Positions 4,916 through 45,254 of a DNA stretch of 59,407 bases are shown here, in pieces. The translations under genes and the position numbers were made by a program. The notes below the pieces were generated by a model. That model ran no database searches. It had not been told where the DNA came from and saw only the letters and a list, made by a program, of their open reading frames with translations. The DNA is from Nemertoderma westbladi. Lineage: Eukaryota > Animalia > Xenacoelomorpha. The stretch lies in NCBI GenBank assembly GCA_032718475.1, contig JAUCBJ010008643.1, positions 1 through 59,407 of the forward strand, given 5' to 3'. The first letter of the stretch is position 1, and each line of letters begins with the position of its first letter.

Positions 4916-4921
4916 CTGGAT

Positions 4922-11895: not shown

Positions 11896-12365
11896 AGTCT
11901 ACGCAGTACTCGTCTTCATTATATGCCTCGTTGCGCTCGTCATTCGTCCCGTGTTGTCATAAAATATTTTTCCTAAACGCAGACTGACGAACTTTATACA
12001 GTTATAACTATGCGAAGTTTTGAAACTGTGCGAGTAACTGCTGATACATCTATGTGGAGATGTGTGATACAACGCCAACGCATCGTATGCCGATGTAGTA
12101 ATATGGGTATTGAAATAATATTAAATCAATGTACACTCTTAAAGCTGCAGCGAAAAATTGTAGCTAATTTCCTTGGTTACATATAAAATAATAAAATTAT
12201 TTTTAAGAACATTAATTTTACTACTTTACAAAAATTCAATTAAAAAATAACCAGACAAATACATTGTGGAATAAACTATTTCATATATAAGCCTACACAA
12301 CAGCCATGCCACGGATAGTATTTATGTTATTATACATGTATCTGTCATTTACCTGAGATAGCAAT
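11896..12365. repeat. Left arm (part 1) of a large inverted-repeat/foldback element
   Basis: Reverse complement of ~29145..29579. Confidence 0.85.
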
Positions 12366-12418
12366 TGTAAAGGCTTTTGCGGAATTAGCTGGTTATTTTC
12401 CCCGCAAAGGAATTTTCC

Positions 12419-13133
12419 CCATCGCTATTACCCTGGACGCGCCTACGAGTGAGTTTACGCGTTCCATCCTTATCTATTCGCGTCTGTTGAACAAAAAACA
12501 CGCACACTGAGTTACGAACTAATGAAGCGTGTTGGTGAGTGTATTTCCACCAAATTTGTTCGAAAATATCTCAGGAACGTCAATCCTAACGATATTAATT
12601 CATACCATTTGATCAATTTCATCCGTCAAGACCCTGAGTATGGCGATTTATTTATCAACTCGCACCCTGAGTTACAGGAAGTATCTCGACGGCCCTACGA
12701 ATATCGAGCCCGAGAACGCGAGCTGGAAAGAACCATTAAACCGAGGAAGTTTCTCACCACTCACGGTCCACCTACCGCTATTGTCCAGACGACTCGTCAG
12801 GGACCAGTAGGAGCTGCTGTCCTAAGACGCGCCCTAAAGGCCGTTAGACCTCGCTCCACTGAAGTTGATATCGATCAACCAGGTACCTCGACCGGCGGAT
12901 ACACCGATCGTAATCCTAAACCTTCTGATGCAATTGTATTGCACCCTTCACCCAGGAGTTATAGCCCTCCTAGTAAAGTGGCTCCCCCCAAAGAGAAAAG
13001 GACTCTTGCTAGCCTCAAAAAACTGCGTAAACGCCGTCCGCGTAAGAAAGACTAACTGTTTAGAGTATTTTTATATTTTAGAAACTGTGATTTTTTATAT
13101 TTTATAGAATTAAATCCTATTTTCTGGGAGCGG
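12419..13133 (+). pseudogene. Duplicated 3' tail of the extra ORF plus PPT, placed upstream of the 5' LTR
   Basis: Near-identical to 26443..27157 (offset 14024). It contains ORF 12522..13055 and is preceded by the first ~44 bp of the LTR (12366..12409). Confidence 0.93.
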
Positions 13134-14309
13134 TCTAAAGGCTTTTGTGGAATTAGCTGGTTATTTTCCCCGCAAAGTACTCTGTAGTTGTTTAAACGGA
13201 GATAAAAAGCCGTTTCCTTACTGTACCGGTGTTTTAGTGGACATAAAAAGCCATTTCTTCTGTATGTGTACTTTAGCGGACATAACTAGCGATTTTATGT
13301 CGCAATAAGCCAAATACTCTAAATATCGGAACTCAGATGACGACATCTATCAGCTGTGTCCACGTGTAACTTTTTCTTTGTTCTTTGTTCGTTCTTTGTT
13401 CGGTCGACCAATCAGAGCGGTTTTCACTCTGTGTTGGAGATTGTATACAGAAACTCACGCAATTCAGTCAGGGTGTGTATTTTTTCCTGATGCCAGAACA
13501 CCGGCTTTGGAATTTCTGTGTTTCAGGCTTTAGCAAAACATTAGTAGGCTTGATCATAGAAACGTATAACTGTTATCTAATCATATCTCAAACCAAAACA
13601 TATTGTTACAAATCATATTGTCACCTACAAACACCGCATTTTTACTGCTATTTACTGTTGGTTATTAATTATATCAGTTGATGGAATATTATTATATTTG
13701 GATAACATCGATAAATAATCATAAAACCCCAATCTTGATATACTGAAGGTAAGAGACAGGTTACATATAGCAATTGCGACTTACATTATATTGGTTTTGG
13801 AGTGAATCTAATGCTATTTCATAGGCACTACATGTGTCGGTTGCTGTTCTCTTTATATGTGACTAAAATTAGTGAAGGTCGGCAGATCGGTGTGCAGCAT
13901 TGTGCGGTAGTGTGCATGAGTTTGATAGATAACAAAGCATCTCCTAAAGAATGCGCTTTATACGTGAATCAATAGCCATCCTGTTGTGCTTAGTGTAAGT
14001 CATAACTCTGTTTACATACTTAGAGCGCCACGTCCTAAAGGAACTGTTGATATTTCCCGAAAGTGAATAATATTTGTCAGAGATTATATATTAACGATCA
14101 ATCGAATAATACAGTAGGCCTACATCGCAATAAGGTCAGAGCTTCCGAATCCAGTCTCCCGGGTATATCCAGCGGGTGAATGGTCGCGCATAGACTGGCT
14201 TCGGCTAATGTAGTGTATCAAATACTCGTCATAGGCTAAAGTCGATTTATAATCTAGAAGACACCTAAATTTGGCAGGTTAAACTGCTAAAGGTCTGAAA
14301 GCGCGAACA
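13134..14309 (+). repeat. 5' LTR of element B (1176 bp; first dinucleotide TC instead of TG)
   Basis: Direct repeat of 27158..28333 with about 8 substitutions counted by eye. Confidence 0.95.
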
Positions 14310-14656: not shown

Positions 14657-15235
14657 AGATAATTTGTAGGCTGGACTGTTGTCTGACTGTTGTTAAGTCT
14701 GAAGAGATTGTAGTGTGTGTAGAGTGTATGTCCGATAAAGTACTAGTTAGGAACTTAGGGGCTTCCAGTGCTGTGAGGTAAATCCCCCCGAAAGAATAAG
14801 TCGTACTACTCGGATAGAACGCATACTAACTAACCATTTCGGAGTCTGCATATACTGTAGTTTGTTTAGGCTTGATAGTAGTCTGCCAGCGTTTGGTCTG
14901 TATTTTGTTTGTGTAGTCTGTACGGGTAGTGTAATATTTCTTATTTAGATAATTTGTAGGCTGGACTGTTGTCTGACTGTTGTTAAGTCTGAAGAGATTG
15001 TAGTGTGTGTAGAGTGTATGTCCGATAAAGTACTAGTTAGGAACTTAGGGGCTTCCAGTGCTGTGAGGTAAATCCCCCCGAAAGAATAAGTCGTACTACT
15101 CGGTTAGAACGCATACTAACTAACCATTTCGGAGTCTGCATATACTGTAGTTTGTTTAGGCTTGATAGTAGTCTGCCAGCGTTTGGTCTGTATTTTGTTT
15201 GTGTAGTCTGTACGCGTAGCGTAATATTTATTATT
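14657..15235 (+). repeat. ~290-bp tandem duplication in the element B leader
   Basis: The block AGATAATTTGTAGGCTGGACTG...GTAATATTT occurs twice, near-identical. Confidence 0.9.
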
Positions 15236-16570
15236 CAGAGTTTATGCGATTATTCGCAACATTCACAACCCCGAGTTTATTCCTACAGTAATTGTGCTTG
15301 TTATACATACCGTTATAGTTAAATTAACCCCGGTACTACATCAGGGCTGCTTGGCTTAGGTAAAGACTGGTGATTTTGTGCCCCGGTCACTCCAGCAGAT
15401 ACCGTGGTTCTTTTAGCTGTACAAGTATTTCTAACTGCTGGTTATTTGTTGTATAAGTACTTGTACCTAATTTAGGGTTTAGTGTACAGTGCTTTCCGAA
15501 GGTAATTAGTGTGTAGGTAGTATATTTGTGTTGTAAAGTGGTTAATAGGCACGTTGGCTCTGGTAGGCCGTGGTAATTAACTTCTAGGTAGGAACACTCC
15601 GTGATACATAACGTAGTACTTATAGCGATACGGCTATAAGTCGTCAGACGGTGGTATTTTTCCTATCTGGACAACGCAGTATATTTACTACTGCTTTGTT
15701 ATTTTCAAATACCGTAGTATCCTGTCTGTTTGTAATAACCAGATATTCTAACCCTTTGTTAGGCTGGTTCGTAGACTTCTTGTAAAATTACCCTAAAAAT
15801 TTCGTACGTGTAATTTTGTATTTATTTAGAGATTGTAATCTCACCCCGAATTGTACGTAATTTGTAGTATTAAGTAACTTAGGTAAATTAGAATTATTTG
15901 TTTTAGTGTCCAACAAGTAGCACTTCACTGAGAGCACACAGCTTCTGTGTAGTGACTCCTTCCCAGAAATAATAACATTTATTTCAAATATTGACAAAAC
16001 CCATTATACGGGTATATATATATTATAAATCAACTTAAACCGATTTATAAAATAGTAGGCCTGTCTTACAACAATTAGGTCTTAATGTCAGTTGGACTAC
16101 TGCTTAAATAACGGCAATCAAGTAAAGTAAAGTAAACAAGTAACCCCTAAAATTCAGAAATTCAATTATTCTAAAATAATTGACATACCGGTATTTACGA
16201 TAGGCTTATTATATTTATTTCTATAAATTTAGGCTGAAATTATACCGGTATTCTGTAATTAATTCTAGTCCATAATTATACTTATATATACTATAAGTGT
16301 AAGCTGTATACCGGTATTCACGATAGGCCTATTATATATTTATATATATCTGTGCTGAAATTATATACCGGTATTCTGTGACAAACCTAGTCTGTAATAA
16401 TACTTATATATATACTATAAGTGTCTACCGGTATTCTAATATATTGTATATATATCACGTTACATAGAGTAACGATATCGGTAATTAATTACTAGGCTAA
16501 CGGTGATACTGAATTACTAGACTTGCTTTAACTGTAATAAAGCAGTAGGCATTTAACTGTACAAACAAAC

Positions 16571-19500
16571 ATGTCTGACACAAAGCCAAACCTGTCAGAC
16601 AGTCTCCTAGATACAACCATCTGTGACCCAGACAGGAGTGTGGAACGTGTGCGACCGAAGTTCAATTCACCTCCTACCGTAAGAAAGATCATCCCTCCAG
16701 TAGTAGTATCAGACCCTAGGCTAGTCCAACACCGTAGGTCTATCATAGGCACTCGAGCTCAGGTCAAGCGGGACCAAGAAGCAGCAGAACAGCAGCAACA
16801 CTCGAGCCGAGAACTTATTTCTCAACGGCCCGACAGCTCCAGTAGTGCGGATACTGTAGAGCTGACACCCGAGCGCGGAGCAAAGATGGCAGATGCGGTT
16901 TATTCGGATCCCCTTCTCATCCTTCCTGCAGCCGTACTCACTAGGGTATTGATTGCGGTGGAGGAACACCAGATTGATTGGGCGAGAAGTAAGCGATCGA
17001 CCAAGGATAGTTATGCGGGATACACAAGGGAAGAACTGAAGTCTATTGTCGAGTCGCAATGGAACTTCCCCGGACCCGGACTCCCATTTGACTTATCGGA
17101 AGCTGCCTGGGAAGACATACACAGGATGGGAGTGACAAAAGAAACCAGCGATCCAGCTGTGTGGAAGAGGTCAGCAGCAGGATACGTACAGGGATTCTTC
17201 AGCTCTATGGAGCGATTAGAGGAACAACTGTTTCGACAACCCCAAGGACCTCAAGAGCAGGGAGAGCTGCTTTATCAAGTTAGAGAAGGAATTCTAAGAA
17301 TCAGACTAATCTTATCGGCCTTTGAGGAGGCTTCAAAAAGAAGACAAGACACGTCGTTGCAAGTTGCCGTAAAGACTTGGTTTCAGCGGGTGAGTCTCAA
17401 AGTTCAAGGAACTGCCCCGTGGAAATCTCAGTTGGCGGAGCGCTCAACCCATGGAGAATCAACAGACGCTACCTTTTCCCAAGTGGAAAGTGAAGTGACA
17501 GCAGAAAAACCGCATAAGAGGGATGCTATTGACATCTATCTGTCAGACTATCAACGATTTGTAGGTGACGAAGAGTTGAGGAGACGGCTGTCTGGACTTC
17601 GCCCTAATAGTGAAGGAGCCAAGCTTGTGTTGGACGCAATCGATGCGGATATGTTAGCTGCGAACCAAGCTAAATTTGATGAACGCCTCCGCATCGCTAG
17701 AGTCCAAGAAGAACAAGTAAAGAAAAAATGTATAGAAGACAGAAAGATAGCAGCAGCGGCAGCAGCAGAGGCAGAAGCGGAAAGATAAGCGGCAGAGGCA
17801 GTGGCAGAAGCGGAAAGAAAGCGAGCCGTGGCAGAAGCAGAACGAAGAGCATCTGAAGAGACCACCCAACTAGAGTTGGAAAATATTCAAGAGAATCAAG
17901 ACCGCATAAATAAACAGTTAGCAGCTAGTCAAATGCAGATGATGAGTCGATCTACTCCCAAAAGACAGGGATATACATCATCTGATGAAGGCGATACCAC
18001 CGATCCTGAAGGCGGAGGAAATAGATCTCGTCTAAGCAGATGTAGAAGAATGTCCCACCTTCAGAAATTGCCTAATTTACCCCCAGCTGTTAGAAGGCAA
18101 CTAACTAACACAGACTTAGGTAGTACAGAACCCACAGACCAAATAATTAAAATAGAAAGACTCCCTACTATAGTAGATGAGCCTGAAATAATTAGGCCTG
18201 TTCTCGAAGCCACCCCTTCGGTGATAGAGACACCTGTACTCCCAGAACCTACCTCTAAATTCCCTTTGCACAGTACTAAACTACCTGTGCCCAGTAGGAC
18301 TGTTCATGAGTCCGAACCCGTCCTGGACGCCGAGCGAGATATCAAGAATTTATCGCCCGTCGTCTCTCGCTCGCCCGCTACTACGTTGGCGACTCCCGCT
18401 TCGGCGGTCGAGTGGGTAGCTGAGGGACGACGGGAGATGGGTCTCCTGCTCGGGCAGCTGAGGGAACACCGTCAGTGCTCCTCTCAGCAGGTCCGGGAGA
18501 TGGAAGGAACTGTTCAGCAGTTCAAGGGCACAGTAAGGGAAAGTAGGTTAGAGTTGCAAGAAGTGCAGCAGAGTATCGCGTTAGAACGCGATAAATTGGT
18601 AAATATACAAAAGGGTATACCACCACCCCCTGTAACAATGTGTCAACCTGTTAGGTCTGAAGTATTTCATGCGCAAGGTGTGGAGCCTACACGCATCTAT
18701 ACTGCTAGTGAAGTAGAAACTCCTATAGTAAACCCTATTAAGGGTAATTATAAACCTGTTGACAATGATATTCCATATAGACTTGATAATAATCCGAGAA
18801 ATTTATATACCGATAAATCGATATTAAATAACACGATGGCCCAAGAAAGTTTTACGCATCAAATGGCTAGAACCGAAGCCCGTCAAGCGGTAAAGGTGGG
18901 AGAGATCATCAAGTTCAATGGGGATGAGATGAAATGGTTACCTTTTAATGAATATTACAAAGATAACATACAGAACTCTGTGCTATCTAACGGAGAGAAA
19001 CTTAGATTCCTCATCGAGTGTTTGGAAGGATCTCCCAAGTTAATGGCGTTAAAGTTTATTGGACATCCAGATGGATTAAGACAAGTTTGGGATACACTAA
19101 ACATCAGGTATGGTAATAGGACTAACATAGCTAGGTATTTATATGCGAAATTAATGGCGCCCCGAAAGTTTCTTAGCAGCGGGATTATAGAGTTTTCCGA
19201 CGAGATTCAGGAGATCTGTAGACAACTAGATTGGTTAGGTAAGTCTCATGAATACCAGAATTTTATGGTTGTAGGAGCCTTAACATCTACTTTGCCCAAG
19301 GGTGGAGTAGGTACACACTGGGACAAGAAAGTGTTATATATGATGGAACAACAATGACGAGACCCTACCATGGCTGATCTCATGTCATTCTTAGATGGAG
19401 AGGTAAAATTACAGCTCCTAAAGCAGTCCAGAGAGAAGACACCGGAAAATAAGGTAAGTGAGAAACCCGTTTCTAGGAGAAAGTTAATACCAGTGTGTTA

Positions 19501-21487
19501 TACAGACGACGGCGAAAGCCAGACTTCTCAAGAGGAAGACAGCGGGAAAGACACTGAAAGATCTTACTATGACAACAAAGCGCCTAAGGACGTAAGTAAA
19601 TTCAAGTCTCGAACCAATGACAGGAGAGAACAGGTAAGAAAAACTCATCCTACGTCTCCTAAGAGAATTCATGTAAGAAAGCCCGAGGAAAGAACGAGTG
19701 TGCACAACGTTACCCAAAGTAAGGTAAGTAACATCAAACCAAAATGTGTGCTGTGCGACGGGCCCCACCGTTTAAGTGCGTTTGATGAATTCCTAAAGAA
19801 ATCATTAAAGGATAGATGGGAAGTCATGTGGGATAAGCGGTTGTGTTATAATTGCCTCAGACAAGGACACCAACGGCGAACCTGTTACTCCGAAGCAAGG
19901 TGTGCGAAGTGCAGCGCAAAACATCATATCTTGTTGCACACTGAATTCGAACGAAACAGCCCGAGTCAGGTAAGTGAGTCCGAACTACATGTCCAATTCA
20001 GTGATGTGAACGACACTGACCAAAGTTCTGAGATGGAAGGATTCTATATGGACGAATTCTCCGACGAAAACGAATCCTGTTACCTGATAAATACCGCAGT
20101 GTATCGAGCACTTACGTATGAAAAGGACACCGACAGCGAGCTCCCCCTAACTACTTCTGACCGACAACCATCTTGGAAATCACCAACTTCCAATGTAGGA
20201 ATCCGAGAATTTCCCGTAGTGCAGTTGAGGGTCCACGGACCTGATAGGAGTTATATAGTGAACGCCCTCCTTGACTCCGGTAGCACAGGAACATTATTCA
20301 TCGACAAAGAACTAGCCGAAGACATCTTTGCTGGACGACCCAAGTTCCGAACTAAGTTAAACATGTCAGGAATTATGCAGGTTTGGAAATCTACAGTAAT
20401 AGCAGATTATTATGTAGGTGCGTTGTCCACCCCCCAGGATGAACTAGGAGAACACAGTATAAGGTCAGTAAAAATGGTGGCGATAAAGAACTTCGCTACC
20501 AGCCAAGTAGAACCTTATAACTGGGATGAGGACGATTTCACCCAGCAGCTTAAGATACCTAGATTCAACACAGACTACCCTGGAGTGCAAATACTCATCG
20601 GCCAAAATGCGCATGAGGCGCTTGAGACATTGGAGAAACGGCCTGCTCAACCGCAACCACTACAAGCCTATGCGGGAAGAACTAGAGTGGGTTGGTACTT
20701 TACTGGCCCTTCCCGTAGAACTCTCATGGAAAGGTTACCAAAAGAACGGGTATACCAAGTAAGTGAATGGGAAGCGGAGAGCAGTGAGGTAGACGACCCA
20801 ACTGAGGGAACACCATACTCCTCAGATAATGACGATATTAACTCCAATGTAGATCAATGGAGATATTGCCCCGAGACGATTAATCTAGCCGACATCGCTT
20901 CCAGAGGAGCAACTCCTCAAGAACTGACAGATACTCCAGACTGGTTAGGTGGACCCGACTTCCTAAGTAAAGAAGAAGAATGGCCTCCCCATCTTACCAC
21001 GGCTGAGATTAGACAAGCCAAGGGAGCGGAGAAAGTCAAACCTAAAACCCGGACGAGTAAATCAAGGTTATTTAAACCCGTGATAGATCTGTCTGTACTA
21101 CACATTGCCAGGGACGACGCTGTGGATCTAAACTCCCCCACCGCAAACCGATCTGTTGTGGAGATCAGAGAGAGAGACTGGAGATCTGGAACACCAGACG
21201 TCTCGCCGGGACTCTCACCTCTCCTGCCGGGAGCGATGGACCACTATAGATCCTGGAATCGGCTTTGTAAGGCCGTCGTGCATTTGAAGCGATGTTTCTA
21301 TCGTCACTATTCCAGGACGAAGAGGAAACCTGGAATTGTATTCGAAACACAACAACTCAATCGCCCAGTTGGTCGTTTATGTTTACTGGAAAGAGGCCGA
21401 GAACTGTCCGGAAACTATGGAAGGCAAGATACTCTTCCCACGACCACCTCCCTAATCCAACAAACATCTAGGGACTCCCCAATGTAA
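16571..21487 (+). pseudogene. Element B gag-protease with internally deleted pol; two in-frame stops (17786, 19355)
   Basis: Three ORFs lie in one frame. They contain KFNGDEMKW, CYNCLRQGHQRRTC, CAKCSAKHHILLH and ALLDSGSTGTLFI, then only QWRYCPETINLADIASRG (RNase H tail) and RPVGRLCLLE (pol C-terminus). No RT or IN core is present. Confidence 0.92.
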
Positions 21488-23040
21488 CAGCGTCTGGAGT
21501 GGGTGTGTGACTATATTATTTTATATTTGTTTTTATTATTTTATATTTATGTATGTATTATTATGTAATTTTATTATAATCGTTTTCTTTAATTTTATTT
21601 AGTAGAATGTTATTTTAGCGATTATCTAGTAGATTAGTGCAATATATATTCGCGTTTATTACTTAATTACTTATATATTATATATTTAGTGCGACGGCGA
21701 GAAATAATTCTTTTTCTCTTTCCTTACTGTCCGTATTACATTATAAATACGTGACTACAATAAGATGAAATATCCGTACTTATTAAAGTACAATAAAGCT
21801 CCTACTATATTTAAGTATTATTGGTAAGTAGAGTATTAGGAATGCAAAGTTCAAATCCTCGTGTCTCGGCTAAACCAAGCTCTGGGTAGACCTTGGAAAC
21901 GACTTGCCTCTACTCACTGACATTGCTTCTTGCGCTATTGCTCTCATACCGTATATTAAATAATACATATAGTAGCGTGATGTCCCTTTAATATTAGCGT
22001 AAAACGCAAAATAAATCTGTTAAACCTTTTGACCATCTGTAATTCTAGTCGATTAAGATATCGCGGCACCCACCGATATACTTGAAAGACAAAATTCTAG
22101 AATCAGTGGTTAACGTCCCCAGACAAGTTCTGGAATAAACTGGTGCCCATCCTAAATATTAACTATTAATATTTATAAAATCTGTCAAATTTTAGATCCT
22201 TTAAAATTCTAGTCTATTAAGATATCGTAGCACTTACCGATATTCTTAAAAAGACCAATTTCCTAGAATCAAGGATCCTAGTCCCCAGACATGTTCTGGA
22301 ATAAAATTGTGTCTATTTAATATTAAATAATAAAATTTACGGGAATAAATTTAAATTCATATTTTAATGAATTTGATAAATTGTCATTTTTATACAATTT
22401 ATAACATTCCCAAAATTCCATTAATTAATAGATCATGGGAGCAGAGATTCACCCTATTAAGTGTATTAGTGTGCGAGAATCTCCAATATATAGTCAATAG
22501 CCGATAAAATTCATAAAATCATGTATAAAGGGGATATTGACAATTAAAGAATTACTATTAAATAGCATCCCAGATCTGTATGCATGAGAATTACCCTAAT
22601 TCTACCGCTAGCTTTCCATAATGTCACCATAGCAACAACCACGCTAGAATTAGAAGTGAGTTAAAAGAACAATAGAAAGCTTACCCCATTGAATAGCATA
22701 GGGAATAAATAGCACACTGCTAGTATCCAAGGATACATAATAATAACGTGGCATTCTGGAAGGCACTGACTAACGGACAAATGGCCCGAATGTGTACAAT
22801 TTGTGACAGTTGTGTGGAATTTGTGCGTTTATAGGTGAATGTTACTACTAAAGTGTGTTTACAGTAGCGAGTCGCAATTGTGAAAGTAGCCCTAACTCTG
22901 CAGCAAGAACCTGAAGTAAATCTAAGCCTTTGGGACGGACAGTGGAGTGACTTGTGCCGGTTATCGTTGTCGTTGTGTAGCTACTACGTTGGCGAAATAG
23001 AAAATTCACCGCTCGCTATACGCATCGTAATGGTACGTAT

Positions 23041-26000
23041 ATGGACTTCTTAACTACTGGCCATCCTATCGATTTACACGATACGGACGATGTAGACACC
23101 GAAAGGGAAATGGTTTTATTTAAATATCATACCCAGCGGAGTCGGAACGATAAACCGAGAATAGAACACGAGAATTCTATTCGAAACAGACTCGAAAGGG
23201 AAGACATTGAAGAGCCGGATAAACGCAGCGACTTCAACGATTATCTGGAATTCCTGAGAGAAACATATCTCGATATTGCCAGTCAACAAAATCTAGAAAC
23301 TCGATATCCTCAAGGTATACATCATGACCCTATGATAGAACTCAAACGACTCTATTTCACTATAATGTATCTTACCGCCGATCGACCGCTACCTGTCGTC
23401 CCAGATAGCTTCGAACAGATGGAGGAATATTGTAAAACTGGAGAACGATCACCCGCGTTTCCCCTGCAGGACGTGCGTCTTTGGTATTACTGCGACGAAT
23501 GCCCTAGACCCAATCAGCAAACGGAAAGACATAAACATCCGCGGAGACGTTGCGCTAAACACAGTTTTACATGATATACTTATGGGAGTTTCAAGCGAAA
23601 CCTGTTCGACGTATCACCTACGCTCGCTCGACTCAAACGATCCTTAAATAAACCAATGATCAGAGTTCCGGAATACTCGGTCAAACCTCCTCATTCCTCA
23701 GTGAGACCTCAAACGCTTGATCCTAATAGTATAACGGATCCCCCTGAAGTGTACTCACTATTTAAAGATCTTGTGTTACCCGAACAATTAATCGGTGGCA
23801 CTCCGGTAGTGGGCTCACTAGATATTCGCCAACCCTACCTAGCCGGATTAGGACACGGTCATCTAATATCGCCGTTTAACCCGTACAACCGTCCAGGCTT
23901 AACACCGATACAACCCGTTACCGAAGTCGAAGAGAGCGTTGTACGAAACGCATTAGACGCTATTCGGCAGAAAATCGGAAAAGGAACTTACGATTGTTTA
24001 GAGAAACGCAAATTGCAGCAACAAATCCAAGCGGTGAAAGAATTAGCTTTACCCCAGTTCGATAGAGAAATCCAGAATCTCGAGGAAGACATCGAACGTG
24101 GACGAACCTACTCTTTACAAGAGTTCCTAGACGAGCGTTTACAACAACAAGCGGAGGAAAATCAGCTCGAGGAGAAACATATAGAAATGGATGAGAGAGA
24201 AGAAGCAGCTTTGGCCCAGCCAGAAACTCAAATTCTTATGACGGATCTCTATTCTAAAACCATCATCCATCCTTCGATGGTTCCCCATTTCGGAGACAAA
24301 CTCTTCGCCACGGCACAACCTCAACCGGTTGATATCAACCTAAGATCTCGAGATCTCATCGCTGACGCTCCCATGTTGCAACGTCCGCCAATCGAGGCCG
24401 CTCGTGTCGATGGTATACTCGTTGAACCTCCGGACAATAGAGCGGATCTTGTCCGTCGCATGGTACACGATGTTAACATACGCGCTAGACCTTTACCGAA
24501 CTCGTTTTATGGGATCAAAGATCACCCTTATTACGTCAATCTAATGCAATATTACATGGTAAAACCGGAAGATCCTACACATAGTCTGAGGTTTCTACCA
24601 CTAATAAATCCTCTCGATCTTGTCGAACTCGAACAACTGCAGAAACATCTGGATCAGTTAGTCAAAGTAAACTCATTTCGAAAACCCTATAATGTTTCCA
24701 GAATAGAGAAAGAGACAATACCTCTGTATAATCTTGATGGATTCATCAAAACTCGATTAGTACACTGGAATCTCGACGTGTTATTCGAAGAGGAAAGAAT
24801 ACAACGATATGGAGATGTAGAAACATATACTACACAATATTTAAAGTATAGAGATCTACCTAATGCTAGCGAATGCGCTACCTTGTGGCATCCAGTGGGA
24901 ATGACTCTAGAAAACGCCACTAAAGAGTGGAATGAGACTCTTAACGTTATCGAGATGTATGGAGTTGTCACTTACGATAATGAAGGTAGCGTTCCGGTTG
25001 GAGAACTGGGAACTACGCGAATGATACACATATGAGGACTAGCTGGTTCTACCCATGTATTTACTCGAGCGTGTTCCGATGTGATTGATTATTCTTTTGA
25101 GACCCTTACCGAGACACAAAGGAAACTCCGACATGGACAATTCGAACTCGCGCAGCGTTACGTCACCGACACCGAGCGCAAACCGGCCATGGGTATCGAT
25201 GGATCGATGTTACCCCAGCCCGTGCTCGAGATGTTGTTTAATGAAAGAATCCTTAAAAATCGGCTCAGCTGTTTACGGAGATCTCCAAAACGACTTTCGG
25301 AACATGGAGAACATTCCATACCCTTTCGTGGATACTCAGCTGATTGCTCCCTGGGCAGAAGGCCGAGGTTTCTTCCGTGCTATGTATGCAAATACACCCA
25401 GCGGCATTACTAAAGTACAACGAACCTCCATCGGACATCTTGCCTTTCAAGAATACGGATGGAATTTCAAGGTTGGAAATCCTATCAACTACCAACAAGT
25501 ATATGGAGATCATTATTCTCGATTATACTTTGACGGACCATTGACTGCACCTGGCGCCGTGTATAGCTTTATGAGTGTTCCACTTCGTCCCTCCTTAGCT
25601 ATATACACGATCTTTGAAAACGCCGCACTTGCCGGTTGGCTAGCCAATGTGTGCAGTCGTACCATACGCGCCCATCCCTTAATACTTGGAACCAAACTCG
25701 CCAAGCTAGATGAACACAATAAATTCATTCGCTTCGAATGTTTCAGGCGCTTTCTGACTCCGTTCCGTAACGTTGATAGTCAGTTCAAGGACAGCGCTCT
25801 GACCAAACTCAGCCTAAGGGACTCAGCTGCGGAGAAGTTAGACAGCGCGGGATTTGCCCTTTTTAAGGACGTTTGTATACAGAACTTACATTCATCTGTT
25901 ATACAAAGACCTCGAATACCCACGGGTTATTCTGTCGTGGAAGTTCAGACAGTGGGTTCGCTTGCGGAGACAGCCGCACCTATCTCAGCTATGCAATTGG

Positions 26001-27079
26001 AAGACGAACCAATATGCTTAGAATCTGAGGAGATTCAGCCTACAGCGCCCCGGAGCAGCGATAACGACTACGTCTTGGAATGGTATCAAGGTCCACAATG
26101 TCTCACCGCATACGATTATCGGCACGCCAACTATGTTTCTCGAAAACGTTGCCGATTATGCGCATCGAGAGATCATTTCACCCCTATGGACTCAGACGTA
26201 CCCTGCTCCTATTTCCATGAACAACCGATGATGGAGATCTATTGTGCGTATTGCAGACTCAATAACTCGCACATTTTTGCAGTCTGCCCACAATTTATGA
26301 CTCAATGCCACCACTGTCAACTTAAAGGACATGCCAGTTTTAATTGCCCTTTTAACCGCGATCGGGAAAGCATAGATGAGATGATTACCCTGCGTTACAT
26401 CCGAGCTTGGGAAGCGAACGCGGATTTGCATTGTGAGTCACGCCATCGCTATTACCCTGGACGCGCCTACGAGGGAGTTTACGCGTTCCATCCTTATCTA
26501 TTCGCGTCTGTTGAACAAAAAACACGCACACTGAGTTACGAACTAATGAAGCATGTTGGTGAGTGTATTTCCACCAAATTTGTTCGAAAATATCTCAGGA
26601 ACGTCAATCCTAACGATATTAATTCATACCATTTGATCAATTTCATCCGTCAAGACCCTGAGTATGGCGATTTATTTATCAACTCGCACCCTGAGTTACA
26701 GGAAGTATCTCGACGGCCCTACGAATATCGAGCCCGAGAACGCGAGCTGGAAAGAACCATTAAACCGAGGAAGTTTCTCACCACTCACGGTCCACCTACC
26801 GCTATTGTCCAGACGACTCGTCAGGGACCAGTAGGAGCTGCTGTCCTAAGACGCGCCGTAAAGGCCGTTAGACCTCGCTCCACTGAAGTTGATATCGATC
26901 AACCAGGTACCTCGACCGGCGGATACACCGATCGTAATCCTAAACCTTCTGATGCAATTGTATTGCACCCTTCACCCAGGAGTTATAGCCCTCCTAGTAA
27001 AGTGGCTCGCCCCAAAGAGAAAAGGACTCTTGCTAGCCTCAAAAAACTGCGTAAACGCCGTCCGCGTAAGAAAGACTAA
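23041..27079 (+). pseudogene. Extra 3' ORF of element B, ~1345 codons, unknown zinc-knuckle protein (2 TGA stops, 1 frameshift)
   Basis: ORFs 23041..23574, 23656..25035 and 25081.. share a frame with open gaps between them. A +1 shift, probably at the A5 run near 25255, leads into 25085..27079. It contains CRLCASRDH, CAYCRLNNSHIFAVC and CHHCQLKGHASFNC, and ends KKLRKRRPRKKD. Confidence 0.85.
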
Positions 27080-27157
27080 CTGTTTAGAGTATTTTTATAT
27101 TTTAGAAACTGTGATTTTTTATATTTTATAGAATTAAATCCTATTTTCTGGGAGCGG

Positions 27158-28333
27158 TGTAAAGGCTTTTGTGGAATTAGCTGGTTATTTTCCCCGCAAA
27201 GTACTCTGTAGTTGTTTAAACGGAGATAAAAAGCCGTTTCCTTACTGTACCGGTGTTTTAGTGGACATAAAAAGCCATTTCTTCTGTATGTGTACTTTAG
27301 CGGACATAACTAGCGATTTTATGTCGCAATAAGCCAAATACTCTAAACATCGGAACTCAGATGACGACATCTATCAGCTGTGTCCACGTGTAACTTTTTC
27401 TTTGTTCTTTGTTCGTTCTTTGTTCGGTCGACCAATCAGAGTGGTTTTCACTCTGTGTTGGAGATTGTATACAGAAACTCACGCAATTCAGTCAGGGTGT
27501 GTATTTTTTCCTGATGCCAGAACACCGGCTTTGGAATTTCTGTGTTTCAGGCTTTAGCAAAACATTAGTAGGCTTGATCATAGAAACGTATAACTGTTAT
27601 CTAATCATATCTCAAACCAAAACATATTGTTACAAATCATATTGTCACCTACAAACACCGCATTTTTACTGCTATTTATTGTCGGTTATTAATTATATCA
27701 GTTGATGGAATATTATTATATTTGGATAACATCGATAAATAATCATAAAACCCCAATCTTGATATACTGAAGGTAAGAGACAGGTTACATATAGCAATTG
27801 CGACTTACATTATATTGGTTTTGGAGTGAATCTAATGCTATTTCATAGGCACTACATGTGTCAGTTGCTGTTCTCTTTATATGTGACTAAAATTAGTGAA
27901 GGTCGGCAGATCGGTGTGCAGCATTGTGCGGTAGTGTGCATGAGTTTGATAGATAACAAAGCATCTCCTAAAGAATGCGCTTTATACGTGAATCAATAGC
28001 CATCCTGTTGTGCTTAGTGTAAGTCATAACTCTGTTTACATACTTAGAGCACCACGTCCTAAAGGAACTGTTGATATTTCCCGAAAGTGAATAATATTTG
28101 TCAGAGATTATATATTAACGATCAATCGAATAATACAGTAGGCCTACATCGCAATAAGGTCAGAGCTTCCGAATCCAGTCTCCCGGGTATATCCAGCGGG
28201 TGAATGGTCGCGCATAGACTGGCTTCGGCTAATGTAGTGTATCAAATACTCGTCATAGGCTAAAGTCGATTTATAATCTAGAAGACACCTAAATTTGGCA
28301 GGTTAAACTGCTAAAGGTTTGAAAGCGCGAACA
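27158..28333 (+). repeat. 3' LTR of element B
   Basis: TG...CA termini, preceded by purine-rich GGGAGCGG (short PPT). Confidence 0.95.
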
Positions 28334-29054: not shown

Positions 29055-29579
29055 ACAGGCAGCCAGTAGTATTGCTATAGCAACACAGACATAACTCCAA
29101 CCATACACTGCCTGTATTTCAATTCGTATTGACTCTATATTACTTACTATCTCAGGTTACAGAAGATATAATGACTGTTGTAGGCTTATATCTGAAATAG
29201 TTTATTCCGCAATATATTCGTCCGGTTATTTTTTAATTGAATTTTGGCAAAGTAGTAAAATTAATGTTCTTAAAAATAATATTATTATTTCATATGTAAC
29301 CTAGAAAATTATCTACATTTTTTCGCTGCAGCTTTAAGAGTGTACATTGATTTAATATTATTTCAATACCCATATTACTACATCGGCATAAGATGCGTTG
29401 GCGTTGTATCACACATCTCCACATAGATGATCAGCAGTTACTCGCACAGTTTCGAAACTTCGCATAGTTATAACTGTATAAAGATCGTCAGTCTGCGTTT
29501 AGGAAAAATATTTTATGACAACACAGGACGAGCGACGAGCGCAACGAGGCATATAATAAAGACGAGTACTGCGTAGACT
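29055..29579. repeat. Right arm of the inverted-repeat element
   Basis: Reverse complement of 11896..12365 plus 28334..28443. Confidence 0.85.
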
Positions 29580-31436: not shown

Positions 31437-32240
31437 GAACACCCTGTTAAACGTTTAAGTTAGTTAATTGTTCTCTGCCAAACTTCGATTTGACAGAGAT
31501 ATGTACTTATATTTAGTACACCGCCTACTATAACCAGCTCCATTGATGAAGTTATATTTATAGAATAGAACTAAAAAATTAACATTTAAAAATAAAATAT
31601 CAAATTAAATTTAATTTAAATAGATAAATTAATTAATTAAAACCAAGTAGTAATGTATAATGGTGGCGGGGCTTAAATCTTCCTGCGTAAAACCACATAA
31701 TAACACACACTACTGGTGGCTCTGTTATGTTCGTGCGTAAAACCAAGTAGTAACACTGGTGGTGGGGCTAAATGCTCCTGCATAAATCCAGAGTGTGAGT
31801 ATTTATTGGGGAGGACAGGGCTGCTATGAGGGGAGGAAGAGGCAGCATTTTTTATATCAATATATTATTTCAACTAATTTATCAAAATTTATTTGTGCAG
31901 CACATGTTTGTCCAGCCTAAATACAGTATATAAACCCGACAGCCCATTTCAACCGAAATGGTTAAGCGCTATGTCGATGGTAAATAAATCCCGACAACCC
32001 ATGGTTCGTCGATGGTGAATAAATCCCGACAAATCATTGCTCAATGATCCGCGTGATCCGCGCTTTGTCGATGGTAACTAAATCATGTGAGGCCTGATTA
32101 AATTAATATTAAAAAATTATATTAATATAAAAAATAATTATATTAATATAATAATATAAATAATAATATAATATATAATATAAATAATAATATAATATAT
32201 AATATAAATAATAATATAATATATAATAATAATATAATCA

Positions 32241-34595
32241 TATATGTTGGGGCGCCAACAAGCTCAAAGATGTATATGTTGGGGGGCCTATTACAAGCCC
32301 GAAGATGTATATGTTGGGGCGCCTACAAGCCCGAAGATGTATATGTTGGGGCGCCTACAAGCCCGAAGATGTATATGTTGGGGCGCCTATACAAGCCCGA
32401 AGATGTATATGTTGGGTCGCCTACAAGCCCGAAGATGTATATGTTGGGGCGCCTATACAAGCCCGAAGATGTATATGGTGGGGCGCCTACAAGCCCAAAG
32501 ATGTATATGTTGGGGCGGCTACAAGCTCGAAGATGTATATGTTGGGGCGCCTATGTAAGCCCAAAGATGTATATGTTGGGGCGCCTATACAAGCCCGAAG
32601 ATGTATATGTTGGGGCGCCTATACAAGCCCGAAGATGTATATGTTGGGTCGCCTACAAGCCCGAAGATGTATATGTTGGGTCGCCTACAAGCCCGAAGAT
32701 GTATATGTTGGGGCGCCTATACAAGCCCGAAGATGTATATGGTGGGGCGCCTACAAGCCCAAAGATGTATATGTTGGGGCGGCTACAAGCTCGAAGATGT
32801 ATATGTTGGGGCGCATATGTAAGCCCAAAGATGTATATGTTGGGGCGCCTATACAAGCCCGAAGATGTATATGGTGGGGCGCCTACAAGCCCAAAGATGT
32901 ATATGTTGGGGCGCCTATACAAGCCCGAAGATGTATATGTTGGGGCGCCTACAAGCCCGAAGATGTATATGTTGGGGCGGCTATGTAAGCCCGAAGATGT
33001 ATATGTTGGGGCGCCTATACAAGCCCAAAGATGTATATGTTGGGGCGCCTACAAGCCCGAGATGTATATGTTGGAGCGCATATACAAGCTCGAAGATGTA
33101 TATGTTGGGGCGCCTACAAGCCCAAAGATGTATATGTTGGGGTGCCTATACAAGCCCGAAGATGTATATGTTGGGGCGCCTACAAGCCCGAGGATGTATA
33201 TGTTGGGGCGCCTATAAGCCCGAAGATGTATATGTTGGGGCGCCTATACAAGCCCGAAGATGTATATGTTGGGGCGCCTACATGCCCGAAGATGTATATG
33301 TTGGGGCGGCTACAAGCTCGAAGATGTATATGTTGGGGCGGCTACAAGCTCAAAGATGTATATGTTGGGGCGCCTATGTAAGCCCGAAGATGTATATGTT
33401 GGGGCGGCTATAAGCCCGAAGATGTATATGTTGGGGCGCCTACAAGCCCGAAGATTTATATGTTGGGGCGCCTACAAGCCCGAAGATGTATATGTTGGGG
33501 CGCCTACAAGCCCGAAGATGTATATGTTGGGGCGCCTATACAAGCCCGAAGATGTATATGTTGGGGCGCCTATACAAGCCCGAAGATGTATATGTTGGGG
33601 CGCCTACAAGCCTGAAGATGTATATGTTGGGGCGCCTACAAGCCCGAAGATGTATATGTTGGGGCACCTATACAAGCCCGAAGATGTATATGTTGGGGTG
33701 CCTATACAAGCCCGAAGATGTATATGTTGGGGCGCCTACAAGCCCGAAGATGTATATGTTGGGGCGCCTATACAAGCCCGAAGATGTATATGTTGGGGCG
33801 CCTATACAAGCCCGAAGATGTATATGTTGGGGCGCCTATACAAGCCCGAAGATGTATATGTTGGGGCGCCTATACAAGCCCGAAGATGTATATGTTGGGG
33901 CACCTACAAGCCCGAAGATGTATATGTTGGGGCGCCTATACAAGCCCGAAGATGTATATGTTGGGGCGCCTATACATGCCCAAAGATGTATATGTTGGGG
34001 CGGCTACAAGCCCAAAGATGTATATGTTGGGGCGCCTATACAAGCCCAATGATGTATATGTTGGGGCGCCTATACATACAAGCCCGAAGATGTATATGTT
34101 GGGGCACCTATACAAGCCCGAAGATGTATATGTTGGGGCGCATATACAAGCCCGAAGGTGTATATGTTGGGGCGGCTACAAGCCCAAAGAAGTATATGTT
34201 GGGGCGCCTATACAAGCCCGAAGATGTATATGTTGGGGCGCCTATACAAGCCCGAAGATGTATATGTTGGGGCGCCTATACAAGCCCAAAGGTGTATATG
34301 TTGAGGCACATATACAAGCCCGAAGATGTATATGTTGGGGCGGCTACACGCCCGAAGATGTATATGTTGGGGCGCCTATACAAGCCCGAAGATGTATATG
34401 TTGGGGCGCCTATACAAGCCCGAAGATGTATATGTTGGGGCGCCTACAAGCCCGAAGATGTATATGTTGGGGCGCCTACAAGCCCGAAGATGTATATGTT
34501 GGGGCGCCTACAAGCCCGAAGATGTATATGTTGGGGCGGCTATTTAAGCCTGAAGATGTACAGTATAAGTTGGGTTGGGGCGCCTACAAGCCCGA
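32241..34595. repeat. 32/34-bp satellite GAAGATGTATATGTTGGGGCGCCT(AT)ACAAGCCC
   Basis: Roughly 70 tandem units flanked by AT-rich low-complexity DNA. Confidence 0.97.
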
Positions 34596-37425
34596 ATGAT
34601 AATGGGACGTTTTGGCGTATTAATCTCACTGCTAATTGAGTATACATACATTTATATATATATATATATTAATTATATAAAATATTTATAACAATATATA
34701 TATTTATATTATGTAAAATATAATTAAATAATCAATATTTTAAATTATTTATTATTAAATTATTATTATTAGATTGACTTTTAATTATAATTCCAATTTC
34801 TTTTTATTTTTAGTTAACGAATTGGTTTTCACGAACCGAAGGAATCCGTCAGAAATAAATATTAGTGGCTCTCATCTCATCAACAACAGGCATTTGGCAC
34901 AAGTGGCAGCTCCAGCTTTCACACAGAAAATATAAATTTGGATCGCTGATTTGCTGAATTGCGGATTGCAGTTTTTAGGTTTTATTATGAATCATTATTT
35001 GAAACTCATTTAAAAGGAACCACTCAAATTAACATTTGAGCCTATATGATAACAAACGATCTTGTGTTACGACATAATAACTACTGTAAAAATCTGATTC
35101 TACTTTATACAACAGTTGAAGCAATACACTCCCTTCGTTGGATACTTACCATCGAACTTCTTATTTTTTCTTATTATTTTTTATCATGAACTGTCGGGGT
35201 GCTGTAAATTGTTAAATATAGTATCCCAAACTATGGCAAGAATTAGTACCAGTACAACTAACAGGGGTGGATGCAGGGAACCGTCGCCTATGGAATGGAG
35301 GGGGGGGGGGGGGACGAATAAGCGGTTGGGAAAGAAGCATGTGGGAGGAGAGGGGAGGAGTGAAGTACAAAATGTACTGGACAGAAGTGAGTGCTATCAC
35401 ACTCAAAGAGTGGGGAGCAGCACCCAACTTCGAAACCACCAGCACGTTTGCTGTAGCGAACTTTATTTTCGAAGCCATCGAACTCGGAATAGACATTGAT
35501 TTAAAGTTTATCGGGTTTGTCTCGTACTCAACTCCATGCGATACCTGATACCTCGGCAGCGGTATTAATACCAAGCGAGCTGGTTGTGTGAAGCATATGT
35601 CTATGAGTTCGCTATATTAATATAAATTTGTAGAAATTATTAAGGTAGATTGAACAGTCTTAGTGACTTCCGATTTAGATTTTTAGATCTACTACCTGTG
35701 TTAATAAAGTTAGCAAAATCGTAAGAAACAGACTAAATCAACTCAGATTAATTTATTAAACTCAAGCGCTGAAATAAATTTTCACGGCTGATACGTGACA
35801 GCAAGCATAACCGATTCCCAATTAAAAGACAAATTTATCATAGTTTTAAAAATGCGTACATGAAATTAATATCATATATGTTTCGAAAATTCAGTGTAAA
35901 AAACTGGAACTATTGTTGAATTTTCATAAGTAAAAATAAACGATTGATCATTGGATCCCACCCAATAATATGTGAAATATTTTATTAACATTATAAATAA
36001 TTTAAATTCATTAATCCTTAAAGGTAAATGTGAAAAAAAAAGCAGCGCCGATACTGTCTATCAAGATAAAGCACCTGTAACTGTTTTCCTTAGTATAACT
36101 TACTTTGTATTACTATTGCATACTGTAGCTACACGTGAAATAAATATAATGTTCCAGAATTTTGGGTATTTATTAAATAGAATAAAATAGCCTCACGCAG
36201 ATGTAAAACCAAGCAAATTTCAAACGCTCATATCTCAGCTATTTTACGACGAAATTCAGATTGTGTTTCATATTTGGAATCCTTGCATGGACAGCTTTCT
36301 AACAATACCAACAAATCAATATAAGGTTGAAGAATAACTGTGGTGTAACTGGTGCAATATCGACGGAGACACCTTTTTCAAACGCTTGAAGCTAAAGACT
36401 GAAAGCGAAAATAAAAATTCTGGCTCACCCAGCAAAGAGGAGGGAGGTGAAATTATCTCTGTTTCACATTTCATGCAATCTCATTAAGATTTGTAGAAAA
36501 ATTTGGGGGGGGGGGGGGGGGCAGGTACCTGAATAACGACACTATATTCCAGGACACAGGACATGGTGTACTGCAATACTGCAATAGGCTTCAGGAATAC
36601 AGGAATAGCCTCCCACAGCCTGGCAGACCTATATGGAATACTGACAAAAAGCGCGCCACACGCATTCTGGTTAAACGAAAATCGCGCCAGCCATGATATC
36701 TAATGCGCGCCAAGCCAACAGTTGACTATGAAATTTTGCAGTAATTCTGTAATTGCTTAATTGTAATAATTTATCAGTTTATAATGCTGTAGCCCTACAG
36801 TATTTTAACATTAAAATGCGAGCGTAGCGAGCAAGGAAATTTTACAATTATGTTAACATATATACAGTCTGACAGTAATAGTCAGATAGTGCTGTAGTTG
36901 TAGTAGTAGTAGGTCAACGTCAACTGACTGTTTTTAAATGCAGATGTGATCAAGATGCGAGCGTAGCGAGCACGAAAATTTTAACATTTCAGCATTTACT
37001 GATTTAAAGTAGGCAAACCGACTGTTTTCAAATAGGGTACAGAAATGCAGATGTCTTTAAATTGCGAGCTGGCGAGCGTAACGAGCATGGGAATTCTGCT
37101 GAATCATGCAGGCTGTCATGGTCTTATTGGTTTGAAGAATCTGACAATTGAAAAACTTTTGAAACAAGTCATGTTTTTAATGGTCATGCGCAATCTGTCC
37201 GTTTCCATTTGTCCACAGCCAGACAGTGCTAAGAGTAGGCTGGTAGGCTTACAGTATAAACGCGAGAGAAGCGAGCGGACTTTTTCAATCTTTTTAAACC
37301 TATGGAATAATTTCAAATAGACCTGTCACCTATCTGCCTATAGAGTGGGATGTGTTGCCAGTGCACTGCTACGCTACCTCCTACTGTACTGTCCTAACCT
37401 AACGCTACATCCACACTGCCATATT

Positions 37426-41553: not shown

Positions 41554-41619
41554 ATAATTTCTTCGCTAGAAAAATTTAAGCCGCGGCCCCGATCGTTTCC
41601 TATAATAGAGATATAACCG

Positions 41620-44600
41620 GAAGTTAGATCAACTCTTCTGGCCGGAAGTGACGTACTATATCGAGAGAACCACGATGTTTCCGTTCGGTTACACCAGCTC
41701 TTCCGACCGGAAAAAACGTCAGCTTTTCCGACCGGAAGTGACGTACTATATCGAGTGAACCACGATGTTTCCGTTCGGTTACATCAGCTCTCTTCCGACC
41801 GGAAGTGACGTACTATATCGAGTGATCCATGATTTTCGGTTTAGTTTACATCAGCTCTTCCGGCCGGAAGTGACGTCATCTCTTCCGACCGGAAGTGATG
41901 TACTATATCGAGTGAACCACGATGTTTCCGTTCGGTTACATCAGCTCTCTTCCGACCGGAAGTGACATACTATTTCGAGTGAACCATGATGTATCGGTTT
42001 GGTTTACATCAGCTCTTCCGGCCGGAAGTGACGTCATCTCTTCCGACCGGAAGTGACGTACTATATCGAGTGAACCACGATGTTTCCGTTCGGTTACATC
42101 AGCTCTCTTCCGACCGGAAGTGACATACTATTTCGAGTGAACCATGATGTATCGGTTTGGTTTACATCAGCTCTTCCGGCCGGAAGTGACGTCATCTCTT
42201 CCGACCGGAAGTGACGTACTATATCGAGTGAACCACGATGTTTCCGTTCGGTTACATCAGCTCTCTTCCGACCGGAAGTGACATACTATTTCGAGTGAAC
42301 CATGATGTATCGGTTTGGTTTACATCAGCTCTTCCGGCCGGCAGTGACGTCATCTCTTCCGACCGGAAGTGACGTACTATATCGAGTGAACCACGATATT
42401 TCCGTTTGGTTACATCAGCTCTCTTCCGACCGGAAGTGACGTACTATATCGAGTAAACCACGATATTACCGTTTGGTTACATCAGCTCTTCCGACCGGAA
42501 GTGACGTACTATATCGAGTGAACCACGATATTCCCGTTTGGTTACATCAACTCTTCCGACCGGAAGTGACGTACTATATCGAGTGAACCACGATGTTTCG
42601 GTTTGGTTTACAACAGCTCTTCCGGCCGGAAGTGATGTCATCTCTTCCGACCGGAAGTGACGTACTATATCGAGTAAACCTCGATATTTCCGTTTGGTTA
42701 CATCAACTCTTCCGACCGGAAGTGATGTCAGCTCTTCCGACCGGAAGTGACGTACTATAACGAGTGAACCACGATATTTCCGCTTGGTTATATCAACTCT
42801 TCCGACCGGAAGTGACGTATTATATCGAGTGAACCACGATGTTTCCGTTTGGTTACATCAACTCTACTCCCGACCGTAAGTGACGTACTATATCGAGTAA
42901 ACTACGATATTTCCGTTTGGTTACATCAGCTCTTCCGACCGGAAGTGATGTCAGCTCTTCCGACCGGAAGTGACGTACTATAACGAGTGAACCACGATAT
43001 TTCCGCTTGGTTATATCAACTCTTCCGACCGGAAGTGACGTATTATATCGAGTGAACCACGATGTTTCCGTTTGGTTACATCAACTCTACTCCCGACCGG
43101 AAGTGACGTACTATAACGAGTGAACCACGATATTTCCGTTTGGTTACATCAACTCTTCCGACCGGAAGTGATGTACTATATCGAGTGAACCACGATGTTT
43201 CCGTCTGAACCACGATATTTCCGTTTGGTTACATCAACTCTTCCGACCGGAAGTGATGTACTATATCGAGTGAACCACGATGTTTCCGTTTGGTTACATC
43301 AACTCTACTCCCGACCGGATGTGACGTGCTATAACGAGTGAACCACGATATTTCCGTTTGGTTACATCAACTCTTCCGACCGGAAGTGACGTACTATATC
43401 GAGTGAACCACGATGTTTCCGTTTGGTTACATCAGCTCTTCCGACCGGAAGTGACGTACTATATCGAGTGAACTACGATGTTTCCGTTTGGTTACATCAA
43501 CTCTCTTCCGACCGGAAGTGGTACTATATCGAGTGAACCACGATATTTCCGTTTGGTTACATCAACTCTACCGACCGGAAGTGACGTACTATATCGAGTG
43601 AACCACGATGTTTCCGTTTGGTTACATCAACTCTTCCGACCGGAATTGACGTACTATATCGAGTGAACCACGATGTTTCCGTTTGGTTACATCAACTCTT
43701 CCGACCGGAAGTGACGTACTATATCGAGTGAACCACGATGTTTCCGTTTGGTTACATCAACTCTTCCGACCGGAAGTGACGTACTATATCGAGTGAACCA
43801 CGATGTTTCCGTTTGGTTACATCAACTCTTCCGACCGGAAGTGACGTACTATATCGAGTGAACCACGATGTTTCCGTTTGGTTACATCAACTCTTCCGAC
43901 CGGAAGTGACGTACTATATCGAGTGAACCACGATGTTTCCGTTTGGTTACATCAACTCTTCCGACCGGAAGTGACGTACTATATCGAGTGAACCATGATG
44001 TTTCCGTTTGGTTACATCAACTCTTCCGACCGGAAGTGACGTGCTATATCGAGTGAACCACGATGTTTCCGTTTGGTTACATCAACTCTCTTCCGACCGG
44101 AAGTGGTACTATATCGAGTGAACCACGATATTTTCGTTTGGTTACATCAGCTCTCTTCCGACCGGAAGTGACGTACTATATCGAGTGAACCACGATGTTT
44201 CCGTTTGGTTACATCAACTCTTCCGACCGGAAGTGACGTACTATATCGAGTGAACCACGATGTTTCCGTTTGGTTACATCAACTCTTCCGACCGGAAGTG
44301 ACGTACTATATCGAGTGAACCACGATGTTTCCGTTTGGTTACATCAACTCTTCCGACCGGAAGTGACGTACTATATCGAGTGAACCATGATGTTTCCGTT
44401 TGGTTACATCAACTCTTCCGACCGGAAGTGACGTACTATATCGAGTGAACCATGATGTTTCCGTTTGGTTACATCAACTCTTCCGACCGGATGTGACGTG
44501 CTATATCGAGTGAACCACGATGTTTCCGTTTGGTTACATCAACTCTTCCGACCGGAAGTGATGTACTATATCGAGTGAACCACGATATTTCCGTTTGGTT

Positions 44601-45240: not shown

Positions 45241-45254
45241 CTTCTACCTTTCAG

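Follow-up and report, generated by a model that had tools for sequence, protein, structure and literature searches.

A selected accessory gene of a Nemertoderma westbladi BEL/Pao retrotransposon, with CCHC knuckles and a likely exonuclease-like domain

A 59,407-nucleotide stretch of Nemertoderma westbladi DNA (contig JAUCBJ010008643.1; hereafter the window) contains a BEL/Pao long terminal repeat (LTR) retrotransposon with an accessory gene near its 3' end. This is one real gene, under purifying selection among copies of the element. Its predicted protein carries three CCHC zinc knuckles and a basic tail, along with a central segment that is very probably a divergent DEDD-fold exonuclease-type domain. 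We give a somewhat better than even chance to a reading in which this selected BEL/Pao protein joins a divergent DEDDy exonuclease domain to the knuckles and acts on nuclear RNA 3' ends, allowing the element to pass host surveillance. The gene and its parts are as follows.

23041..27079, forward strand: accessory gene, ~1345 codons, broken at 23572, 25033 and 25255-25259
23491..23553, forward strand: extra CX2CX11HX4C motif, a possible zinc site and fourth Cys/His motif, from a pattern match only
23929..24225, forward strand: Glu/Gln-rich segment, probably helical or coiled-coil, as judged by eye; residues 351-400 carry a net charge of -9
24916..25640, forward strand: likely DEDDy (RNase D/Rrp6/WRN-type) 3'-5' exonuclease-like domain
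26150..26347, forward strand: three CCHC zinc knuckles
27041..27076, forward strand: basic C-terminal tail, resembling a nuclear localisation signal (NLS) in sequence, with a putative function only

A first-pass annotation, made from the sequence alone, had proposed a sense-strand open reading frame (ORF) of about 4 kb between pol and the polypurine tract (PPT), crossed by two TGA stops and one frameshift in an A run; all three breaks were found. The first frame begins with ATG at 23041 and is open to 25410 apart from TGA at codons 178 (23572) and 665 (25033). The second frame is open from 25085 to 27079, and the break site is the sole A5 run of the frame overlap, 25255-25259. The native segments sum to ~1345 codons (738 + 606).

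Copies of the family were compared in contigs from four DNA runs (X1-X4; at most three samples) of one organism. Contigs from each of the four runs span the element's 30 bins in full, with identities mostly of 90-99%, and the family therefore has many copies. In every one of the four runs, the stops at 19355, 23572 and 25033 are absent from at least 99.7% of the summed contig depth. Selection was examined with the 39 best-supported of 146 rows of inter-copy difference in 24900-25620 (721 nt), with one row at the break site left out. Synonymous changes make up 34 of these 39, whereas random changes of the same types give 12.5 on average and never more than 22 (5000 draws). Within 25085-25254, 13 of 15 differences lie at first-frame third positions and none at second-frame third positions; within 25260-25413, six of seven lie at second-frame third positions and none at first-frame third positions. 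In the rest of the gene, five of eight listed sites are synonymous. The synonymous excess, together with codon phase switching at the frame break, establishes one real, selected gene.

The same third-position phase test rejects two overlapping genes. A programmed frameshift is not favoured, since all three X4 contigs (100% of depth) and 38-48% of X1-X3 contig depth differ at the break. Large internal deletions of the gene (23192-25999 and 24182-26730) are bridged by contigs too, so some derivatives lack most of it.

The identity of the gene was narrowed by exclusion. Hydropathy over 19 residues reaches at most 1.19 and the N-terminus is hydrophilic, so neither a transmembrane segment nor a signal peptide is evident, in agreement with the first-pass annotation; an env-like fusion glycoprotein is rejected on these grounds. 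The Gag of a nested element is rejected as well: there is no Gag Pfam family, the best BLASTP match to either Gag has an expectation value (E) of 0.12, and no repeat pair surrounds the gene. A neutral, single-copy host fragment is incompatible with the many copies and the synonymous excess. These were the three identities that the first-pass annotation had set against its own proposal that the element carries a true accessory gene other than env. None was found, and the proposal is borne out by coding selection, the lack of membrane features and of Gag likeness, and the many copies.

The three knuckles (CX2CX4HX9C, 26150-26206; CX2CX5HX4C, 26243-26287; and CX2CX4HX4C, 26306-26347) and the NLS-like tail lie where they had been reported. 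The knuckles match zf-CCHC_3 with E 0.03, below the cut-off, and the Atlas leads for the C-terminal part are CCHC and AIR2-like clusters with scores under 0.9; Atlas matches under 0.9 are leads only. The knuckles and basic tail fit a protein that likely binds nucleic acid and is likely nuclear. The earlier suggestion of a nuclear nucleic-acid-binding factor is thus retained, whereas its companion, a second structural protein, found no support. At rank 14 among the Atlas matches of the C-terminal part stands a cluster of 83 eukaryotic proteins of 1277 residues, 28% of them with AIR2-like_ZnK4 (score 0.78). These proteins are close in length to the accessory protein.

Support for a DEDDy assignment of the central segment is weak but convergent. 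The candidate acids are D 24976 and E 24982 of an ExoI D-x-E motif (24976-24984) and D 25280 of ExoII; neither the ExoI D-x-E nor the ExoII D has a variant among the 39 listed inter-copy differences. ExoIII has no Y-x3-D, and two candidates are present, one ending in Ser (25562-25576) and one in Glu (25604-25618). For 23575-25032, four of the five Atlas rows shown are RRP6-like, PMC2NT or DNA_pol_A_exo1 clusters (scores 0.75-0.83). Among 18,950 NCBIfam models the sole match is TIGR01388, RNase D (E 0.088). A scan of 201 proteobacterial genomes with the central region, a query carrying X at the breaks, gave 38 matches at E<=1. Eleven of these fall on query residues 104-204, and ten of the eleven were shown to lie inside PF01612 domains (nine of 30 loci examined, one by coordinates).

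Profile comparisons point the same way. A hidden Markov model (HMM) of 30 bacterial domains scores 6.7 bits, reached by none of 1000 shuffles, and it aligns without gaps to a 45-residue ExoII stretch spanning the frame break. A WRN-like profile of 11 sequences sets its DxE motif on the ExoI candidate. With a 50-sequence profile, hhalign gives E 0.0014 (0/100 shuffles), and with subgroup profiles its score is reached by 1/100 and 9/100 shuffles. A six-block colinear score of 32.5 lies above the highest values seen in shuffles (23.1; 0/500) and in 26 window controls (13.0); taken singly, only the ExoII and DT blocks beat shuffles (0/300 each). The first-pass annotation had described a globular central segment of no recognised family. 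The segment stands, whereas the lack of a family gives way to likely membership of the DEDDy 3'-5' exonuclease superfamily. By our estimate, the chances that the domain is catalytically active are roughly even.

A number of points weigh against this reading. All homology scores lie below library significance, and the bacterial tests are not independent because they mostly detect one 45-residue segment again. Other unidentified families recur among the 38 genome matches, with three or four matches each. With the WRN-like profile alone, the HMM score is reached by 12/1000 shuffles and the hhalign score by 9/100. The hhalign probability is at most 18%, with ExoI placed elsewhere, and global mode finds nothing. 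As single blocks, ExoI (the query's best block) is reached by 12% of shuffles and ExoIII by a fraction of 0.92, and the spacing from ExoI to ExoII requires an insertion of ~40 residues. At the frame break, just that 38-48% of X1-X3 contig depth is listed as differing, and more contigs end there loose. Pfam, PDB and PHROG searches gave no exonuclease match, and no relatives emerged from protein or contig searches to show conservation across species. The protein's target, location, expression and activity are inferred.

The searches themselves had a defined reach. Word-index and HMMER protein searches used the N- and C-terminal parts, and the whole exonuclease domain was never their query. Word-index searches with the C-terminal part (longer and near lengths) and the N-terminal 790 residues found nothing at E<=0.01. 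HMMER with the C-terminal part against 1.84 billion representatives returned one match, an Angomonas acidic repeat protein (E 7e-4), which was set aside because it shares no motif. PDB sequence searches gave only unrelated matches (E 0.19 or worse), and PHROGs only matches of unknown function (E 0.05-0.07). Related loci of the accessory gene were found in neither viral nor metagenome contigs; the neighbouring BEL pol likewise has none in viral contigs. Phage and plasmid tblastn with the gene gave none, bar one chance match (E 4). The Pfam and AlphaFold checks that the first-pass annotation called for yielded the Pfam result above and single-sequence models with a mean predicted local distance difference test score (pLDDT) of 29 and 32, too low for use. 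That annotation did not mention the exonuclease-like domain, the fourth Cys/His motif at 23491-23553 or the internally deleted versions of the gene in the family.

BEL/Pao elements are usually described as containing gag-pol and at most an env-like gene. Atlas virus is reportedly a BEL/Pao element whose env-like ORF is a phlebovirus-like glycoprotein. Such env-like ORFs occupy the same slot between pol and the 3' LTR, whereas the accessory protein has no evident signal peptide or transmembrane segment. The available portion of PMC2774666 assigns additional genes to Retroviridae, Caulimoviridae and part of the Ty3/Gypsy elements; it names none for BEL/Pao. Closer precedents are found in bdelloid rotifers, in which the LTR retrotransposons Juno and Vesta and the Athena/Terminon elements carry a DEDDy ORF3 of untested function (PMC5408684), a finding repeated in PMC5718144 and PMC6431247. 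The shared features are a separate third ORF after pol in the env position, an RNase D-like DEDDy domain (a likely one in the BEL/Pao gene), and no transmembrane domains (PMC5408684). What sets the present gene apart is its BEL/Pao host, its length of ~1345 codons and, in its predicted product, a Glu/Gln-rich segment and a basic tail besides the three CCHC knuckles. The main text of PMC5408684 contains neither CCHC nor zinc (0 occurrences), and describes Vesta2 and Vesta5 as having a Cys-His-Cys motif. Moreover, the bdelloid ORF3 shows no significant departure from neutrality within its genome in that account, whereas the BEL/Pao gene is under purifying selection among copies. The earlier phrase "undescribed system" is too strong, since the gene sits beside this published kind of LTR-element ORF3. 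No exonuclease ORF in a BEL/Pao element, and no knuckle-fused exonuclease in a retroelement, was found in the literature covered, which did not extend to Repbase, subscription journals or supplements. DEDDy domains also occur in Dada DNA transposons, whose proteins end in a CCHC finger; the Dada domain lies inside the DDE transposase and is not a separate retroelement gene (PMC3706591).

The pairing of nuclease and knuckles has a cellular counterpart. An E. coli RNase D search of the PDB matched 7c45/7c42, labelled "CCHC-type domain-containing protein". These entries we take to be the Trypanosoma brucei RNase D (TbRND). In TbRND, C-terminal CCHC fingers bind RNA at a distance of 5-9 nucleotides from its 3' end and stimulate trimming by the exonuclease domain (PMC7797062). 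In both proteins a DEDD exonuclease domain, a likely one in the BEL/Pao case, stands before a C-terminal CCHC array. TbRND, however, trims guide RNAs in the cell and has four fingers and a linker of 28 residues (PMC7797062), whereas the BEL/Pao protein has three knuckles, ~170 residues between domains and two competing ExoIII candidates. The PDB sequence search gave no TbRND-type match to the accessory protein, and the likeness is likely convergence.

By analogy with the trypanosome enzyme, the knuckles would grip an upstream part of a single-stranded RNA whose 3' end is engaged by the nuclease domain. If the basic tail does serve as an NLS, action would be nuclear, and expression might come from a transcript of the gene's own. 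As a first guess, the targets would be small guide RNAs or decay-marking tails, trimmed or shielded with the effect of weaker silencing of the element. A bolder proposal, and an unlikely one, is that a BEL/Pao lineage makes a ribonuclease of its own against silencing, in which an Rrp6-like nuclease is fused to Air1/2-like knuckles and which would trim guide RNAs or decoy TRAMP/exosome. If true, this would explain the very high copy number of the family, including copies without reverse transcriptase (RT) and integrase, and two modules of nuclear RNA surveillance would be united in one transposon protein.

Other explanations differ in what they make of the fold. The DEDD fold could be real but dead, with the protein binding the element's genomic RNA for export or localisation. 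Egalitarian, Exuperantia and EXD1 are dead DEDD-fold adaptors of this kind. One ExoIII candidate does have Ser for Asp, with no variant at that codon in the 39 listed rows, and strong divergence from active enzymes, along with the knuckles and tail, would suit an adaptor. There is also the precedent of CERV of Cer1 in C. elegans, likewise a non-env accessory protein of an LTR retrotransposon, which is nuclear, acts on element RNA and is required for genomic RNA export (PMC10309623). The portion of that paper at hand mentions no exonuclease in CERV, and homology to the accessory protein was neither found nor tested. We nevertheless regard this adaptor reading as rather unlikely: the acids of ExoI (D-x-E) and ExoII (D) are preserved, with none among the variants listed, and the second ExoIII candidate, the one picked by the colinear search, retains Y-x3-E.

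Doubt about the fold itself leads to chance likeness, with the gene coding for an orphan knuckle protein whose fold is unassigned. The absence of a library-significant match anywhere is what chance would give, as is an ExoIII block that is not significant and whose candidates end in Ser or Glu. This is nonetheless very unlikely, because the family was predicted from Atlas leads first and then ranked first both in NCBIfam and among the proteobacterial genome matches, none of the 1000 and 500 shuffles reached the observed scores, and the motifs fall in the expected order. A role in replication, with the nuclease trimming primer RNA or cDNA 3' ends in the particle and the knuckles serving as a second nucleocapsid, is decidedly unlikely. 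An NLS-like tail, a gene separate from pol and contigs that join across its internal deletions would not be expected of such a helper; to our knowledge, most BEL/Pao elements replicate without one. What speaks for it is that inspection by eye shows no evident primer-binding site of tRNA type downstream of the upstream LTR (after 14309), that the knuckles faintly match the neighbouring Gag (E 0.12), and that DEDDy enzymes act on single-stranded DNA too (PMC5408684).

The surrounding element is set out below.

12366..12409, forward strand: opening 44 bp of an LTR, where the whole insertion has its left end (97.7% match to 27158-27201)
12419..13133, forward strand: repeat of the accessory gene's 3' end together with the purine tract, from a deleted upstream tandem unit (4 mismatches/716 nt against 26443-27158)
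13134..14309, forward strand: upstream LTR, starting TC and ending CA
16571..21487, forward strand: gag-protease frame and pol remnants, with two stops (DUF1759, E 2.8e-12)
21488..23040, forward strand: non-coding, AT-rich spacer in which ~165 bp are duplicated internally; no terminal repeat of its own
27150..27157, forward strand: purine-rich PPT-like tract directly before the 3' LTR
27158..28333, forward strand: 3' LTR, 1176 bp, with TG...CA ends

BEL/Pao features of this element include a DUF1759 Gag with knuckles, the LTR pair (differing by 8 mismatches), the PPT and a possible short target-site duplication. The accessory gene follows the pol remnant, which ends at 21487, and precedes the purine tract and 3' LTR. 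Within 16571-21487, the protease segment (E 2e-12) and the segment after RNase H (E 1e-12) match the neighbouring BEL pol, the one that bears Peptidase_A17. Between them RT-RNase H has been lost in frame: target residue 244 is followed in the alignment by 968, with ~720 residues skipped. No integrase family appears among the Pfam matches, and the integrase core is deleted in the studied copy. Despite the RT-RNase H and integrase core losses, the frame at 19358-21487 stays open to the usual pol C-terminal motif. Gag is broken in this copy as well; two of its Cys/His knuckles fit and the first is altered. The studied copy is a decayed, non-autonomous insertion for which RT and integrase would be needed in trans, and retention of the accessory gene while both were lost, as the first-pass annotation remarked, is true of it.

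The left end of the insertion (12366-13133) is odd: 44 bp of LTR, nine unrelated bases, the gene's 3' end and the PPT precede the full LTR. With a 716-nt copy of the gene's end and a 44-bp LTR start ahead of the upstream LTR, it looks like a tandem with its first unit almost wholly deleted, or the product of aberrant strand transfer. The outer flanks, GCAAT on the left and GAAAT to the right of 28333, are identical at four of five bases and are a possible target-site duplication. A 290-bp tandem duplication (98%) lies at 14657-15239, inside the 2.2-kb 5' leader.

A second BEL/Pao element, with a DUF1759 Gag, Peptidase_A17 and a weak RT match, occupies 1-8014 on the minus strand; its integrase, by eye, extends past the left end of the window. 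The family of this neighbour might supply RT and integrase in trans. The neighbour itself contains a stop at 1440-1442 in a 12-nt repeat array coding PDxSPD-like units, and a short PDxSPD-like motif stands at the equivalent place in the studied element. On either side of the whole LTR insertion is a 412-bp inverted repeat pair, 94% alike (11896-12307 and 29171-29579), possibly the ends of a DNA element holding the insertion, or two copies of a dispersed repeat. Elsewhere are an 837-codon open frame with 18-nt repeats at 52463-54976, with coiled-coil-type Pfam matches (Hamartin E 4e-13, probably compositional); a 148-bp inverted repeat with a 12-nt loop at 57643-57950, one arm of which holds an ARAGORN tRNA-Asn (57810-57883); and long tandem arrays at 32226-34600, 41600-45250 and 55300-57500 (periods 32-34, 65 and 34 nt).

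DEDDy third ORFs were already known from bdelloid LTR elements, and the pairing of exonuclease with CCHC motifs from trypanosome RNase D; what appears new, against the literature covered, is the BEL/Pao host and the likely fusion with knuckles in a retroelement. The gene would extend exonuclease-type accessory genes from bdelloid retroelements to BEL/Pao, and clear purifying selection among copies is added relative to the bdelloid study. Its layout resembles that of a cellular guide-RNA trimming enzyme of solved structure, which offers a concrete biochemical hypothesis on why retroelements carry DEDD nucleases, and on whether animal LTR elements may encode suppressors of small-RNA or exosome control.

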